From the NCBI GenBank assembly GCA_040387995.1, contig JAZKCT010000055.1:5372-69371 (forward strand): DNA of 64,000 bases. Reading direction: 5' to 3'. The stretch is from Bacteroidota bacterium (GTDB lineage Bacteria; Bacteroidota; Bacteroidia; Sphingobacteriales; Sphingobacteriaceae). A program made the position numbers and the translations under genes. The notes beneath the pieces were generated by a model. The model was not told the origin of the DNA, did not search any database, and worked only from the letters and a program-made list of their open reading frames with translations. Positions 57,326-64,000 of the stretch are shown here, one piece after another; position 1 is the stretch's first letter; the number at the start of each line of letters is the position of its first letter.

Positions 57326-57505
57326 TTAGTTTAAGGGGTTAAATGGTGCTGTTGTTAAAATCTCTGTTTCTATTACGGTAATATTCTTCGTGCCTGAAAA
57401 CTGGTACTTGGTCTCCTGCTCAAATTCCTGTACGGTTTCCGACAAATTGGAAAGTTTGCTATCTACCGTTACCCTAATGGTCAGGTATAAATGGTGCTGT
57501 TTCAT
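57326..57505 (-). CDS. 59-aa ORF missing from the ORF track; paralog of 57474-57698
   Basis: Hand translation MKQHHLYLTIRVTVDSKLSNLSETVQEFEQETKYQFSGTKNITVIETEILTTAPFNPLN; stop lies 5 bp before the DUF932 ATG. Confidence 0.7.
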   Translation of the reverse strand: MKQHHLYLTIRVTVDSKLSNLSETVQEFEQETKYQFSGTKNITVIETEILTTAPFNPLN

Positions 57506-57698
57506 AAGAATTCAATTTATTAATGTGCGGATTGCGAACCCTTGATAACAGGATTTCAGTTTCCATAATATTGACATTGGCCGTATCGGTCATGGCTAAT
57601 TTGGAATGGCTTTCAACCTCGCTGACAATAGCAGATAGGCTTTCATGATCGGCGTGAACGGTCACGCGGACCATAATAAATAGTGTTTCGTACTTCAT
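57474..57698 (-). CDS. Small hypothetical protein, tandem paralog
   Basis: MKYETLFIMVRVTV...N.N+METEIL aligns with the 59-aa ORF. Confidence 0.7.
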   Translation of the reverse strand: MKYETLFIMVRVTVHADHESLSAIVSEVESHSKLAMTDTANVNIMETEILLSRVRNPHINKLNSYETAPFIPDH

Positions 57699-58983: not shown

Positions 58984-59628
58984 TCAATTGCTTTTAAACA
59001 AAAGCGGATCATCATCACCTGGTTTTCTCACGATGTAAACCGTCTTAAATTCCGGTGGGGGACAGGAATACAGCCTGCGTGCCAGTTCCACTGCTGCCAG
59101 TACGGAACTGGCTTTAGCTACACCCATGCCTTTGAAACTACACAACGAAGAATAGCTACTGCTTTTCAGCATATGGATCTTTCCGCCCATGCCTTCCAGT
59201 ATGCGGCCGGCCAGCTCAATAGCCGATTCGCCAGGCGAACCCGAGCCCAGCAAAATAGCCAGCAGTTCCGCATTATTTATTTTATTTGCACCATGCGCAA
59301 ACAGCTTTTCCCTTGGACGTGTATCCTCAGGCATCGCTTTAATCCCTTTTGAAACCCTCGATTCTTCTGCCACCTCTCTAAGCGTCTGGTATCCGCGCCC
59401 CTGGTAAGCAGCCGACTGGAATAGCGAAGCGAAAGCGCTGATAAAATCCTCCAGGTGATTTTCAAAAACGACGAACGACCACCTTTTATAGCTGCCGTCG
59501 GGCTGCTGTTCACTGCGGGTTAACTGGATATAGCGGCTGTCATTCTCCGCGCGTTTAAAATCTAAAAAGTAATGTCTTTTGTCAGTGGCCGAAAAGGATT
59601 CCGAGGCCAGTATTTCTTTCTTTTTCAT
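58984..59628 (-). CDS. PUR-alpha-like (DUF3276) domain fused to the RadC N-terminal HhH region, lacking the JAB domain
   Basis: RHYFLDFKRAEND.RYIQLT.S PUR-like N-half; RPREKL...G...+NNAELLAILLGSG...SAIELA..IL and GMGVAKA..+LAAVELARR. Confidence 0.8.
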   Translation of the reverse strand: MKKKEILASESFSATDKRHYFLDFKRAENDSRYIQLTRSEQQPDGSYKRWSFVVFENHLEDFISAFASLFQSAAYQGRGYQTLREVAEESRVSKGIKAMPEDTRPREKLFAHGANKINNAELLAILLGSGSPGESAIELAGRILEGMGGKIHMLKSSSYSSLCSFKGMGVAKASSVLAAVELARRLYSCPPPEFKTVYIVRKPGDDDPLLFKSN

Positions 59629-59745: not shown

Positions 59746-60192
59746 TTGAAATATTTTCGGGATAATTTCGTTCTGCAATTACCAACTTTAATGAAATTAC
59801 AGATGTCCAGTGGTTTGAAAACTTGTGAATGGTGTAATAAAATACTGCATGGCCGCTCGGACCAGCGTTTTTGCAATGATGCATGTAGGAATACCTACAA
59901 CAGGGAAAAAAGGCAGTTTGAAAAAATTCAGATGCATCCCAATGCCCCGGAAATATTCAGGGTTTTAAAAACGAATTACGAAATACTTAAAAAGGGAATA
60001 CCCGGTCAGGTACCATATTTTAGAGGCTCAAAATGCGATACAGAAGTCTTTATGAAAAGTGGCATTAACCTTAAATTTTACACCAGTTCATTTAATGATT
60101 CAAATCAATGGTTTTGTGTGTTTGATTATTGCTATTCGATAAAAGGTGATGAAACCCGAATCATTTGTATTGAAGAGCAGGCGGATTTATGA
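59746..60192 (+). CDS. Zn-ribbon hypothetical protein (DUF2116-like); true start probably downstream
   Basis: CEWCNKILHGRSDQRFCNDACRNTYNREK motif. Confidence 0.75.
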   Translation: MKYFRDNFVLQLPTLMKLQMSSGLKTCEWCNKILHGRSDQRFCNDACRNTYNREKRQFEKIQMHPNAPEIFRVLKTNYEILKKGIPGQVPYFRGSKCDTEVFMKSGINLKFYTSSFNDSNQWFCVFDYCYSIKGDETRIICIEEQADL

Positions 60193-60277: not shown

Positions 60278-60661
60278 TTAAACACGTTCAGCAACAGCGA
60301 ACGCTAAAGTTAAAATTTCAGAATGTGTGATAGTAACATGCCATTTGTTGATACCGAATTTGTCACTGAGGGTTTTGACTTTTCCTGAAAGTTTTACCTC
60401 CGGCTGGCCGTTTGGAGAGCGAATGATATCAATGTCTTTAAGGGAAATGTCATCCTGCATTCCCGTTCCAAGGCACTTTAATATCGCCTCTTTTGCAGCG
60501 AAACGCCCCGCAATGAAATTGTCTTTAGAAGCGTGTGCATGAAATAGCGCTAATTCACTTTCTGACAGGATCCTGCTAGGAAAATTACCCTGTGTGTCCC
60601 AGGCAAGTAATTTGCTGTTTTGGTCGTGTTGAACAATATCACTTCCGATTCCAATGATCAT
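60278..60661 (-). CDS. acpS: AcpS-type 4'-phosphopantetheinyl transferase (holo-ACP synthase)
   Basis: MIIGIGSDIV, AGRFAAKEAILKCLGTG, NGQPEVKL, VTITHS motifs. Confidence 0.88.
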   Translation of the reverse strand: MIIGIGSDIVQHDQNSKLLAWDTQGNFPSRILSESELALFHAHASKDNFIAGRFAAKEAILKCLGTGMQDDISLKDIDIIRSPNGQPEVKLSGKVKTLSDKFGINKWHVTITHSEILTLAFAVAERV

Positions 60662-60672
60662 GGGACAGGCAA

Positions 60673-61263
60673 TTAATTTATTGCCAGGTAATCGATTTCT
60701 TTTGTTAAAAGATTAAAGTTGACACGACCGCCTCCATTATTTATTAACAACCGGAACATATCATAAGCTTTTAAAATAGCCTTTTCCCATTCTTTGGAAG
60801 TACGTGCGTTGACTTCAAAATTCTCAGTCATTTCCTTAACGATTCGTAGCGTCGTACGTGATACTTTAGAAGCGCCCTCAAAATACTTTTTACGCTTTGC
60901 CTCATTAAAAATGACCATAGATAGCGCTTCTTCTGTTATAGTTGCCCTTGCTCCATCTTCAATTTCATCTAGTAAGACATCGCTTTTGCGCTTACGCTTC
61001 ATCATGGCACGGGTACAAGGTGACCAGCCAAGCAGGGTAGCAAAGGTGTAGTGAAAAATATCGTGATAACGGTAGAAATCATTGCTGTAAGCATTATCAT
61101 TGATGACATCCCCAATCTGCTCATCGTCATTGAGTACAACACGCACTTCTTCCCTGATCCCATTTCCTACCTCATAAAAAGAGACAGAAAAGGACCGCGG
61201 GATTTGTTCCTCAGGCTTACAGCCTGCATCAAAATAACTATTTTGCTTTTTTGATCGTGTCAT
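60673..61263 (-). CDS. Stand-alone MazG C-terminal (MazG_C) domain protein
   Basis: EQIPRSF, IGD.INDNAY..D.YRYHDIFH...A.LLGWSP..RAMMKRKRKS...DEIEDGARA.ITEEALS; no N-terminal MazG helical domain. Confidence 0.75.
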   Translation of the reverse strand: MTRSKKQNSYFDAGCKPEEQIPRSFSVSFYEVGNGIREEVRVVLNDDEQIGDVINDNAYSNDFYRYHDIFHYTFATLLGWSPCTRAMMKRKRKSDVLLDEIEDGARATITEEALSMVIFNEAKRKKYFEGASKVSRTTLRIVKEMTENFEVNARTSKEWEKAILKAYDMFRLLINNGGGRVNFNLLTKEIDYLAIN

Positions 61264-62092
61264 TTTTTATTTCGTTAGCTAATATACTATCTATTTTTTG
61301 AACCAGAACCTTATCAGTTAATGTTTTACGTATTTCGGTGATAACTTCCTCTGTTGATTCTTTAGATTTTCTGCCATCCGCGAATCCCCGGTCATAGGCT
61401 ACCCAATCCCAACCTAACTTTAAAGCTATCGCAATAAAAAGGCCAATGATAATTTTATATAACCAGTCGTTGCGATCTTTTTTCTCGTCTGATTTTACAA
61501 TCTTTTCAGAAAGGGATTGTTCAACGGCTACAATTTTATCTAACAGAGCTTTTGGCGAAGTCAGTTCTCCCCGTTTTAAAAACTCAATATATTTTGGCGG
61601 AATATGATCGAGTTTTTTAAAATGATCGTTGTTGTCATTGTAAGCTTCATCTTCGCTTAGTTCATGCTTCATCTCCGCAAACCAAATCGGGAAATAAGGT
61701 TCGCCAAAATTAAGTACAATTGTAGAAGGCCCTGCATTGTATACAGAAAATAGCAAATGGTCATTGAAACCAGGGTCAACATGAAAACCAGATACGTTAA
61801 TGAGACCCTTTAGCTTTTCTCCGGCTTTGATAGAAATAAAGGCAATTTTGTCTTTTGGAATACTGACCTTTTCTTTTGTTAGCAACAAGGCAAACTGTCC
61901 TGGATTGATATCAATCTGCCGGTCGTCTTTATCCAATGTTTCTACCTTTCCTGTCTTAGAGTCAGTGAGGTAAACTTCTTTGCCAAGGGATAATTCATAC
62001 GCGCCGTTTTTTACCCTTCGGGCATCAAATGGATCTATCACGTTTGATGTTGTTTGTAAGACCAGTAATTCTTTTACACCTAAAAATGCCAT
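61238..62092 (-). CDS. dCTP deaminase/dUTPase-fold protein with substituted deaminase residues and a C-terminal TM helix
   Basis: AYELSLG, INPGQFALLLT.E.V, GLINVSGFHVDPGF, VYNAG; hydrophobic WLYKIIIGLFIAIALKLGWDWV near the C-terminus. Confidence 0.8.
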   Translation of the reverse strand: MAFLGVKELLVLQTTSNVIDPFDARRVKNGAYELSLGKEVYLTDSKTGKVETLDKDDRQIDINPGQFALLLTKEKVSIPKDKIAFISIKAGEKLKGLINVSGFHVDPGFNDHLLFSVYNAGPSTIVLNFGEPYFPIWFAEMKHELSEDEAYNDNNDHFKKLDHIPPKYIEFLKRGELTSPKALLDKIVAVEQSLSEKIVKSDEKKDRNDWLYKIIIGLFIAIALKLGWDWVAYDRGFADGRKSKESTEEVITEIRKTLTDKVLVQKIDSILANEIKNDTIKKAK

Positions 62093-62133
62093 CTCTATTA
62101 ATTTTTATTTATTTCAATCAGTCATCTATTACC

Positions 62134-63222
62134 TCAGTCCAATATTTCTATCAACCGCGGAGCCTGCTGTATCCTGTGGTTAATTCCCCATTTTGGCGGG
62201 AACCAGTAATCAATTTTTGAGGCGTTGCTCCGAAATTTCTGCTTAATGTTTACCCGTTCACTTGCTCCTTTGATGTCAGGATGTTTCACTCTGGCATATT
62301 TGTCCACTTCACAAAATAAATTCTGACAATCTATCAACTGCAGCTTTCTAGTCCAAAGATCTTTAAACTCTAAACCCAGACGTTCGAACTCCCGTTCCTG
62401 GCTATCGGTCATCAGTTTAATAATCTCCACATTATTCAGTCCCCCAGTATTGGAAAAACATTTACTGATTCCTCCTTTTGCGCCAGGACCTGGCACAACA
62501 AAAGATGATTCAGAAAAATCAGTTAGGGTAGAATAATTGATGTCAATTACCAACTGATAAGCCAGGAAGTCTCCAAGTCCAGGAAACCTTTTGATCAATT
62601 CAAACGCATGTTGCATATTCTTGGCAGTAACCAGATGCTCATGCGTATCCTCTGCAATCATGAACTCGATTAACTTAAGGTGGTTGGAGTGCTTTCTGGT
62701 ATAACCAAAATAAGAGCCTCCTGACGGCATGATGTAAGCAGCCGAATAGATTCGCTCGCCGGCCAACATGGCTATCGTTAAGATCTTATCATAAGCTTCA
62801 AAATTATAGTCTTCGAAAGTTATCGTTCCAAATTCTGCAAGAAGTAACTCCCAGGTATCTATTTTGTTGAATAGCTTAAATACTAAAATGCGGAAAAGTA
62901 TTTCCTTAGGTGTATTTGGAAACTGATCATTGTAGATCACGTTTTTAATGAGGTATTGACTGACCCTATCCGCTGCCCGATACGCATTTGTAAACTTGTA
63001 TTTATTTAAAATATCGTCATCTGACCAGGGTGCACTCAGACCGTTAAACCTGTTAAAAAATGCTTCCTGGCGCAGTGCAGCAAACTTCCAATAAGAGATG
63101 TATACGTCCGTAACAATAGCAGGAGCAAGAGAAACATGAATATTTATCGTATGCCCGGTAGTGTTTGCTGCCGGGGCTGTAGTTGATTTACTTTCTTTGT
63201 TTTGTTTTGTCATGACCTGCAA
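62134..63222 (-). CDS. 5-hydroxymethyl-dU DNA kinase-like protein (aGPT-Pplase clade 1 / helical domain family)
   Basis: YWKFAALRQ..F, W.DD.IL..YKFTNAYRAADRVSQY, FKLFNK..TW, YSAAY, FPGLGDFLAYQ..ID.NY, GPGA.GG, LIDCQNLFCEVDKYAR. Confidence 0.8.
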   Translation of the reverse strand: MQVMTKQNKESKSTTAPAANTTGHTINIHVSLAPAIVTDVYISYWKFAALRQEAFFNRFNGLSAPWSDDDILNKYKFTNAYRAADRVSQYLIKNVIYNDQFPNTPKEILFRILVFKLFNKIDTWELLLAEFGTITFEDYNFEAYDKILTIAMLAGERIYSAAYIMPSGGSYFGYTRKHSNHLKLIEFMIAEDTHEHLVTAKNMQHAFELIKRFPGLGDFLAYQLVIDINYSTLTDFSESSFVVPGPGAKGGISKCFSNTGGLNNVEIIKLMTDSQEREFERLGLEFKDLWTRKLQLIDCQNLFCEVDKYARVKHPDIKGASERVNIKQKFRSNASKIDYWFPPKWGINHRIQQAPRLIEILD

Positions 63223-63231
63223 AGATAACCG

Positions 63232-63978
63232 CTATAGAATAGAACTTAAATTAATTCTGTCCAATAAATCCTTGGCAGATGTCTTTCCCAGATTGTCCAG
63301 TTGTTCCACCCCGATAAAGCAATTCAACCGCTCGAATTCAAGACCAGTTTCCTGGGCGATAAATTTTCCTAGATTGATCAGTCCCAGCCAATTTCCGTAG
63401 GCCCGGCGGTAAAAAAACTGAATCGCATAAAAACTATTCAGCACCAGGCCACCTGTTTCTGATTTGTAAAATGTAACATGCTGAAGGCAGGGGAATCTCT
63501 GGTATGGGCCGTTGGTATGGTCCTGTTCAGGATCAAAGATTGATGCCTGGAGCTTGGATCTCCGTTTATTAGTGGTGCTTAAAATAGAGGTAATGATCAT
63601 CTCCAGCTGGTTGATCGGCTGTCCAGCATTTTGATAAGCGATCATTCTTTGGAAATAAGTACCCTTGTGATTACTGGAATCTATGCGCCTGATACGTTGA
63701 TAATTTCGCATATATTGGTCGTACAGTTCATGGCGATCCCATCCGCAAAACTGATAAAGGGATTGCGGGAAAATTGTTTCTGAAACAGTTTGTATCGATG
63801 GTAAATCGTGACTGGCCAGATCAGCATCCAACAATTCCCGAACATCTGAAGATTCCACAAAGTCAGTAAGGGTCAATAATAGTGGACTAATTTCTTTTCC
63901 AGAGTTACTCACCAGCGTATTCAGTACTTCAGTCCAGGCTTCTGATAAATTGGTGTTTTTAATAAATAATGGTTCCAT
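63232..63978 (-). CDS. Divergent thymidylate synthase-fold protein (dUMP hydroxymethylase-like)
   Basis: TVSETIFP, GTYFQRM, ASIFDP, FPCL catalytic-Cys motif, AYGNW equivalent of the TS PFN motif. Confidence 0.75.
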   Translation of the reverse strand: MEPLFIKNTNLSEAWTEVLNTLVSNSGKEISPLLLTLTDFVESSDVRELLDADLASHDLPSIQTVSETIFPQSLYQFCGWDRHELYDQYMRNYQRIRRIDSSNHKGTYFQRMIAYQNAGQPINQLEMIITSILSTTNKRRSKLQASIFDPEQDHTNGPYQRFPCLQHVTFYKSETGGLVLNSFYAIQFFYRRAYGNWLGLINLGKFIAQETGLEFERLNCFIGVEQLDNLGKTSAKDLLDRINLSSIL

Positions 63979-64000
63979 AAATTGCTAATCTAGATCGTTT

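Follow-up and report, generated by a model that had tools for sequence, protein, structure and literature searches.

A repressor-controlled operon of relatives of phage thymidine-hypermodification enzymes, with its own carrier protein, as a likely branch of the DS-4 family of anti-phage systems

We analysed a stretch of 64,000 nucleotides (the window) from contig JAZKCT010000055.1 (C55:5372-69371) of a 5.85 Mb bacterial genome whose closest relatives are Pedobacter. Five minus-strand genes at the end of this window (60278-63978) form the downstream part of an eight-gene operon controlled by a repressor. In order, the operon encodes a carrier protein, an XRE repressor, an ImmA/CapP-like peptidase, a protein with the thymidylate synthase (TS) fold, an HMUDK_hel protein, a Dcd-fold membrane protein, a MazG_C protein and AcpS. 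The operon is most likely a branch of the family of anti-phage systems represented by DS-4 ('NTTI'), from which it is distinguished by having its own carrier protein. According to the passages that describe it in the DefensePredictor paper (Science 2026, PMC13092281), DS-4 was validated in E. coli MG1655 and is composed of a canonical PF00303 TS, a P-loop adenylate or deoxynucleoside monophosphate (dNMP) kinase, HMUDK_hel, a ThsB-like TIR protein and Nmad2. We assign a probability of about 55% to the reading that the operon is an inducible system of the HMUDK_hel family, directed against phages (or mobile elements) and working broadly as proposed below, and a far lower one to any single chemical step of the mechanism. 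We infer both the defence role and every biochemical step.

The original prediction, made from the letters of the window, had described five minus-strand genes with gaps of 9, 41, -26 and 11 bp, and the listing of open reading frames (ORFs) returns all five intact at exactly these positions. They encode the divergent TS-fold protein (TS-like; 63232..63978, 248 residues), recognized through a sub-threshold TIGR03283 match and hhalign; the HMUDK_hel protein, formerly named aGPT-Pplase clade 1 (62134..63222, 362 residues, PF18723); the Dcd/dUTPase-fold membrane protein (Dcd-TM; 61238..62092, 284 residues, PF22769), whose gene overlaps the next one by 26 bp; a stand-alone MazG_C protein without a MazG domain (60673..61263, 196 residues, PF18722); and, as final gene of the operon, an AcpS-type 4'-phosphopantetheinyl transferase (PPTase; 60278..60661, 127 residues, PF01648 and TIGR00516). 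The labels previously given to AcpS, MazG_C and the TS fold agree with the profile matches reported below. The operon had also been suspected to continue past position 64000, and reading across the edge of the window revealed three further genes on the same strand. Their positions are given in window numbering, which equals the numbering of L002, a 20-kb sequence spanning the window edge, plus 59000. The first of the three encodes an ImmA/IrrE (CapP-like) M78 peptidase of 287 residues with an HELGH motif (63985-64848, PF06114); its 3' end (63985..64000) lies inside the window, and its stop codon is 6 bp from the ATG of the TS-like gene, on the upstream side. It is preceded by the gene of an XRE/CapH-like repressor (64850-65185, 111 residues, HTH_3), which in turn overlaps by 20 bp the gene of the carrier protein (65166-65459, 97 residues). 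This last protein, the product of the first gene of the operon, was recognized through a profile search of PDB sequences and Foldseek.

The operon had been expected to be a conserved and horizontally carried set of relatives of phage thymidine-hypermodification enzymes, whose genes stay together in other genomes. Comparative analysis agrees with this expectation, given the recurrent layouts described here and the location of the operon on an integrative and conjugative element (ICE). We clustered the genes of 81 loci related to Dcd-TM. TS-like, AcpS, HMUDK_hel and Dcd-TM are found together in 45 of these loci, far above chance, and the full set of eight is shared by about 45 of the 81 despite rearrangements. 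The trio composed of MazG_C, the Dcd-fold protein and HMUDK_hel, which are encoded by consecutive genes of the window, recurs in 64 to 73 of the 81 loci. Three layouts can be distinguished. Type I (around 45 loci) is that of the window and consists of the carrier protein, a helix-turn-helix (HTH) repressor, M78, TS-like, HMUDK_hel, Dcd-TM, MazG_C, an optional gene of 243 codons and AcpS; in several loci its two halves are inverted or split and nonetheless remain together. Type II (around 20 loci) combines a ThsB-like TIR protein, ThsA or a larger TIR protein, Nmad2, Dcd-TM, MazG_C and HMUDK_hel. Type III, found outside Bacteroidota, is made of a small ORF with a DS motif, HTH, M78, TS-like, Dcd-TM, a thymidylate-kinase-like gene, HMUDK_hel and a canonical TS. 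The optional gene of type I, absent from the window, lies by MazG_C or Dcd-TM in eight loci (L013, L039, L042, L046, L058, L064, L065 and L066), and its 243-residue product has a weak match to HEPN_RiboL-PSP (1e-3). A search anchored independently on HMUDK_hel was positive in 4 of 400 other Bacteroidota genomes, all four with one of the system layouts. HMUDK_hel is patchily distributed, in about 1% of genomes. The Dcd-TM family as a whole counts 2226 homologues, with 412 relatives among GTDB species genomes, and the TS-like family counts 635 representative clusters at E<=1e-30.

A putative repressor/protease switch is part of the operon. The peptidase (PF06114, 1.2e-11) has the HELGH form of the HExxH motif and finds its best PADLOC match in capP (9.3e-16), and the repressor (HTH_3, 1.1e-13) finds its own in capH (1.3e-17). 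On the 5' side of the carrier-protein ATG, the sequence reads TTTG-N19-TACATTTG, with the TTTG box at 65504-65507 and the TACATTTG box at 65477-65484, which fits the -33/-7 promoter pattern of Bacteroidetes. These boxes were identified by eye; a sigma-70 promoter scan was uninformative. The spacer of this promoter (L002 6463-6507, corresponding to window positions 65463-65507) holds a perfect palindrome, GTAAGA-N3-TCTTAC, at 65485-65499 (GTAAGAAAATCTTAC), and a second, weaker copy overlaps the start region. The palindrome occurs once in the 20 kb of L002 and has no copy across the 64-kb window. When at most two mismatches are allowed, 42 of the 46 loci with TS-like, M78 and HTH, including loci from Verrucomicrobia and Acidobacteria, have it in the 700 nt upstream of the repressor gene, as compared with 22 matches in the remaining 835 kb. 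Where modules are divergently transcribed, the palindrome lies in their common intergenic region. Such deep conservation, together with the position inside the promoter, speaks strongly, at the level of sequence, for a unit under repressor control that begins at the carrier-protein gene. The XRE protein of the operon itself presumably binds the palindrome as repressor.

The first protein of the operon is, judging from profiles and its predicted structure, a carrier protein of the acyl/peptidyl type, and its phosphopantetheinylation is predicted. Its best matches in a profile search of PDB sequences are acyl carrier proteins (ACPs; E 0.005), with Ser43 aligned with the serine of the DSL motif. 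Ser43 is invariant in 25 homologues and is the residue at which helix II begins in the AlphaFold model (predicted local distance difference test, pLDDT, of 90); the top 50 Foldseek matches of this model are all ACPs or peptidyl carrier proteins. No Pfam family, PP-binding included, matches the protein at E<=0.1, as the carrier family has diverged too far for the curated model to recognize it. With this gene at the head of the operon AcpS is not an orphan, and the earlier description of it as an isolated CoA-using transferase has to be abandoned. AcpS matches PF01648 (2.2e-17) and TIGR00516 (97.1 bits against a cut-off of 59.8), keeps D8, E58 and K62 at a conservation of at least 90% over 49 homologues, and is linked to the operon in 48 of the 81 loci. 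It is supernumerary, because the genome has three further PPTase genes outside the operon, which also rule out a housekeeping role. The small DS-motif ORF precedes the repressor gene in loci without AcpS as well, which indicates that carrier, HTH, M78 and TS-like form a four-gene module.

The combination of an ACP and a PPTase is a hallmark of natural-product pathways, TS-fold hydroxymethylases are found in nucleoside-antibiotic clusters, and the operon travels as ICE cargo. These observations would fit a non-immune function, in which the operon builds a nucleoside-derived small molecule on its carrier, or serves the mobile element as a module for addiction or exclusion. We consider this very improbable. 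No ketosynthase, acyltransferase, adenylation or condensation enzyme is encoded in the approximately 45 loci, the parts of the operon have been repeatedly exchanged with TIR, Nmad2, ThsA and SLATT immune modules, and the distribution is patchy, at around 1% of genomes.

A bolder version of the immune reading, which we regard as doubtful, has the phosphopantetheine arm of the carrier protein directly join pyrimidine C5 chemistry. The arm would act as a folate-independent group donor to the TS-fold enzyme or, alternatively, its thiol would capture a C5 exocyclic-methylene intermediate, and the resulting thioether conjugate of protein and nucleotide, or of protein and DNA, would block phage DNA. 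We know of no carrier proteins that act on nucleotides or DNA. In favour of such a role, the carrier-protein and TS-fold genes are linked across phyla in loci where we saw no loading enzyme, and a phage transferase takes a thiol nucleophile in vitro (PMC8989533). In the literature we found no named system with a carrier protein or a PPTase, and no paper on the carrier-protein branch. If true, the participation of a carrier arm in the chemistry of nucleotides or DNA bases would be a new use of phosphopantetheine and could lead to new DNA-modifying enzymes, and MazG_C would acquire a function and a fold class.

The TS-like protein has no Pfam match, and its match to TIGR03283 (7e-14) falls under the cut-off of that model. 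When aligned through hhalign with a canonical TS, the ThyA of the same genome, it reaches a probability of 97% (E 1e-10). It keeps C164, Y108 and N196 (C146, Y94 and N177 of ThyA), all of which are invariant in 21 divergent members across phyla. The same alignment gives no equivalents of E58, W80, W83, R166, S167, D169, H207 and Y209, which form the folate and phosphate sites. TS-like proteins also cluster separately from the group of canonical TSs that matches DS-4A. A housekeeping role for the TS-like protein was ruled out, as a normal ThyA is encoded elsewhere in the genome.

HMUDK_hel was the source of the label 'hmdU DNA kinase-like' in the original prediction, where hmdU is 5-hydroxymethyldeoxyuridine. 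The homology on which this label was based is real, and the kinase is missing. The window protein matches PF18723 over residues 39-319 (5.7e-106) and has this domain alone, with no P-loop kinase domain PF18748. The SP10 protein gp186, a characterized 5-hmdU DNA kinase (Table 1 of PMC8989533), carries PF18748 at residues 35-193 and PF18723 at residues 313-598, and the window protein is homologous to the latter. In phage YuA the homologue is gp14, encoded directly after the kinase gp13. By homology, then, the window protein corresponds to the helical domain that partners phage 5-hmdU DNA kinases and is not itself a kinase. G217, C304, E305, K308 and Y309 are invariant in the family, phage members included. 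One member is annotated by the Joint Genome Institute (JGI) as 'aGPT-Pplase clade 1'. When compared with the clade 2 amino acid:DNA transferase, MAFFT pairs C304 with the phage Cys, and hhalign against YuA gp10 is non-significant (E 0.51).

Since in phages HMUDK_hel accompanies, as a partner domain, a kinase whose target is 5-hydroxymethyluracil (hmU) in DNA, the system could recognize and attack phage DNA that already contains this base. This is the least probable of the readings that we considered. A TS-fold enzyme of its own would be superfluous if the phage supplied hmU, and hmU phages are too rare to account for hundreds of loci across phyla. To our knowledge, the DNA of phage lambda contains no hmU. 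Lambda is the phage given in a DS-4 assay row of Table S7 in the DefensePredictor paper (PMC13092281).

The neighbouring MazG_C protein matches PF18722 (1.9e-65) and has the invariant motifs YRYHDxFH, KRKRKS and DExEDGARA..TEE. Its AlphaFold model (pLDDT 92) has no usable Foldseek match in PDB or BFVD, and its profile finds no PDB sequence; on these grounds we did not adopt the description of MazG_C as a 'predicted kinase'. In sister loci the slot of MazG_C is occupied by a thymidylate-kinase-like gene, or MazG_C is fused to HMUDK_hel. In particular, L073 encodes a fusion of Thymidylate_kin with HMUDK_hel, and in L076 and L083 HMUDK_hel is fused to MazG and MazG_C. These fusions and slot swaps indicate that MazG_C and the P-loop kinase are alternative neighbours or fusion partners of HMUDK_hel.

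Dcd-TM is composed of a Dcd/dUTPase-fold region (residues ~1-150), a linker, one transmembrane (TM) helix (~210-233) and a tail of about 50 residues. The fold and the helix that had been proposed for it both stand. The protein matches PF22769 (1e-11) and has retained VDPGF, the motif with the invariant Asp, and its best PDB matches are the 155-residue 'dCTP deaminase' entries 8y1w and 9ln0. Of 82 family members, 71 have a hydrophobic helix near residue 210, judged by a Kyte-Doolittle mean of 1.6 or higher across 19 residues. Deaminase activity, on the other hand, was ruled out, as the three catalytic residues have been lost family-wide. E138, S111 and R115 of E. coli Dcd align with S116, A90 and L94, and among 79 full-length members of the family a Glu is never found at 116 nor a Ser at 90. 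D106, H104, N99, S101 and K93 are invariant in the same 79 members. Most simply, Dcd-TM is a predicted nucleotide-binding module tethered to the membrane. A known anti-phage gene of the dCTP-deaminase type (L039 3872-5905, plus strand; PADLOC dCTPase 2e-120) directly adjoins the type I operon of L039, which places two different Dcd-fold defence strategies next to each other.

Systems without Dcd-TM occur in Actinobacteria, where the gene order is carrier, TS-like, AcpS. An ICE of Kribbella encodes a small carrier-like ORF (weak similarity), TS-like (hhalign 99.9%), AcpS, HTH, M78, a papain-like Peptidase_C1, MazG/MazG_C, Tmk and HMUDK_hel; here Peptidase_C1 takes the place of Dcd-TM, beside an enlarged M78 (L094 10579-12659). 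In Cellulomonas, again with no Dcd-TM, M78 is fused to a chagasin-type Inhibitor_I42 (L095 4366-5460). In Microbacterium the set resembles DS-4 and comes with SLATT and TIR genes. The actinobacterial Peptidase_C1 and Inhibitor_I42 suggest that a protease restrained by an inhibitor may be an alternative output.

In the inducible anti-phage system that we propose, the repressor would at rest occupy GTAAGA-N3-TCTTAC between the -33 and -7 boxes and keep the operon off. Infection or DNA damage would activate the peptidase, which would lead to removal of the repressor. AcpS would turn the carrier protein into its holo form. The conserved Cys of the TS-fold protein would attack C6 of a uracil nucleotide and, with the holo-carrier, give rise to a C5-modified uracil nucleotide in a reaction that needs no folate. 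MazG_C, which occupies the slot of the P-loop kinase of phages and DS-4, may then phosphorylate or otherwise process the base together with HMUDK_hel, either as nucleotide or in DNA. Finally, a trimer of the degenerate Dcd-fold protein would bind a deoxypyrimidine nucleotide at the membrane and bring about growth arrest or a block of phage replication. Three models had been offered in the original prediction, and the second of them, which combines nucleotide chemistry with a degenerate Dcd-fold output at the membrane, fits best; the marking of host DNA and the attack on hmU-containing phage DNA found no specific support.

The main rival of this proposal keeps the defence role and makes modified DNA itself the weapon. 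In this case dUMP or dUTP would be diverted to C5-modified dU and polymerized into replicating DNA, where HMUDK_hel and MazG_C would activate it. The phosphorylated or adducted base would block transcription, replication or packaging, and the Dcd-fold protein would only manage the nucleotide pool or localize the machinery. The gene set does parallel the first steps of phage hypermodification, with a TS homologue, a dUTPase-fold protein and a kinase with HMUDK_hel. A phage dTTPase/dUTPase of the dUTPase fold steers the pools to hmdU, and DS-4 has a canonical TS and a dNMP kinase. In addition, a passage of PMC6457204 reports that enzymatic phosphorylation of 5hmU in the DNA template shuts off in vitro transcription by bacterial RNA polymerase. 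We nevertheless regard such poisoning of DNA as unlikely. The TS-fold protein of the window is without folate-binding residues, the Dcd-fold protein is without the motif-II serine and the C-terminal arm needed for hydrolysis, a membrane anchor is unexplained in a pool enzyme, and the operon has no dedicated kinase or polymerase.

Several points weigh against the inducible system with a membrane output as we propose it. The defence role is argued from distant relatives, with one clear homologue in common in the case of DS-4, and from genomic neighbourhoods. The role of the carrier protein is conjectural, because the operon encodes no enzyme to load it. The TS-fold protein has lost most of its contacts with the nucleotide phosphate and with folate, and could be a binding protein instead of an enzyme. 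MazG_C is an analogue of the kinase in a purely positional sense, as it has no recognizable fold or known activity. Dcd-TM cannot be seen merely as one of several swappable effectors, because it occurs with TIR and Nmad2 in type II loci. Finally, switches of the ImmR/ImmA type also govern functions of ICEs that have nothing to do with immunity.

The operon travels as cargo on a CTnDOT-like conjugative transposon of this Pedobacter-like bacterium, with TraG, TraJ, TraM and RteC to one side and a DUF932 gene and a RadC-N gene to the other. Its location near DUF932 and RadC-type genes on such an element, together with the anti-restriction role of the homologous phage enzymes (PMC8989533), would be consistent with self-marking, that is with hypermodification of host DNA or of the DNA of the element in transfer, as a 'self' label or as a shield of the ICE from restriction in the recipient. 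This explanation is quite improbable. The 81 loci have no conserved nuclease partner, and the repressor/protease switch of the damage type, with its operator embedded in the promoter, indicates that expression is not constitutive. Self-marking would also leave the membrane-anchored degenerate Dcd-fold protein and the carrier protein with no role. Furthermore, many sister loci are chromosomal islands by Thoeris or restriction-modification (R-M) genes.

As for these neighbourhoods, which had been singled out earlier as a check on novelty, known defence genes make up 4 of the 10 large neighbours of sister loci that were sampled: a type IIG R-M enzyme, a mads8/HerA protein, a dCTPase and a GajB-like helicase. 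One type II locus sits between Thoeris, type I R-M and GmrSD genes. Next to the operon itself, and divergent from it, lies a gene for an OLD-like ABC-ATPase/Toprim protein of 623 residues (L002 6642-8513, plus strand; window 65642-67513), with matches to PADLOC ATPase-Toprim_I-B (2e-24) and AriAB (9e-22) and to Pfam AAA_21 and AAA_15. This gene is probably a defence system on its own, carried by the same element as independent cargo.

On the other side of the operon, four smaller genes can be described. A plus-strand gene (59746-60192) that converges with the end of the operon encodes a zinc-ribbon-like protein of 148 residues; other contigs of the genome encode four paralogues of it (27-33% identity), and its Pfam matches are weak treble-clef ones only. 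A RadC-like gene (58984-59628, minus strand) has the UPF0758 N-terminal domain, a weak DUF3276 match and no JAB domain; full RadC JAB genes flank several sister loci. Two overlapping minus-strand ORFs of 59 and 74 residues (57326-57505 and 57474-57698) look like paralogues by eye, as both show (I/V)RVTV near the start, followed by ...LS..V.E.E... and then ETEIL.

The operon most likely belongs to a bacterial family built of parts of phage DNA hypermodification, which was shown to be anti-phage only recently, with DS-4 in 2026. The system is widespread, and conjugative elements carry it in at least two phyla. Its carrier-protein branch has features that make the chemistry of the family approachable, namely a carrier with its activating enzyme, a TS-fold protein without a folate site and a catalytically silent nucleotide-binding fold anchored to the membrane. 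The chief points of interest are the pairing of carrier protein and PPTase, MazG_C as an orphan by fold, and the silent membrane protein of the Dcd fold. The conservation of the operator across several phyla is unusually deep and provides a ready search motif for further members. Together with the switch, such a well-defined operator also offers a handle for controlled induction.

The separate parts of the operon can be compared with several known systems. In CapH/CapP of the CBASS immune systems and in ImmR/ImmA of mobile elements, an XRE repressor is controlled by a partner M78 peptidase. The pair described here likewise consists of an XRE repressor and an M78 zinc peptidase with HExxH, and all have a palindromic operator that overlaps the promoter. 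Unlike these, the pair is not divergent from the operon under its presumed control; its genes lie within that operon, downstream of the carrier gene, and signal-dependent cleavage of the repressor is presumed by analogy. Dcd-TM has the beta-barrel fold in common with the anti-phage dCTP deaminase and with housekeeping Dcd/dUTPase. It differs in that it has no match to the PADLOC dCTP-deaminase model, no catalytic Glu, Ser and Arg and no kinase domain, and in that a TM helix has been added.

Phage thymidine hypermodification (SP10 gp186, the homologues of M6/YuA gp54-55, and ViI; PMC8989533, PMC5889632) has HMUDK_hel in common with the operon and a TS homologue nearby, and some hypermodifying phages have a pool enzyme of the dUTPase fold, akin to the Dcd fold of the window. 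The P-loop kinase PF18748 and the group transferase (aGPT-Pplase clade 2) of the phage pathway are absent from the operon. Moreover, the context of the operon is cellular and controlled by a repressor, whereas the phage version is a replication module.

The original prediction had considered the system undescribed. This holds in so far as PADLOC models return no match for any of the five window genes, nor for the carrier protein, and does not hold for the family, of which one member, DS-4, has been put to the test and validated and a further set predicted. The latter is a 'MazG-C, dUTPase, aGPT-Pplase' system, which figures as a prediction only in the legends of Fig. 6F and S12C of the DefensePredictor paper (PMC13092281). 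As far as these legends allow a comparison, the published trio has the same three domain families as the core of the window operon and of type II, and no carrier protein, AcpS, TS-like protein or switch.

The closest comparison is with DS-4. The passages of the DefensePredictor paper that deal with its family contain no account of the mechanism that we could find. The operon of the window is without the canonical PF00303 TS, the P-loop kinase, the TIR protein and the Nmad2 of DS-4, and has instead a TS-fold protein with no folate site, MazG_C, the Dcd-fold membrane protein, a carrier with AcpS and the repressor/protease switch. In both systems, a TS-fold enzyme and a partner gene of the phosphotransfer type, to which MazG_C would belong by its position, lie beside HMUDK_hel. 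The stand-alone HMUDK_hel of DS-4 (DS-4C) is 29% identical to that of the window (BLASTP, E 1.4e-32) and has the same C-E-x-D-K motif, and the TS, TIR and Nmad2 of DS-4 have counterparts, with 36-56% identity, among the accessory genes of type II and type III sister loci of the Dcd-TM family.

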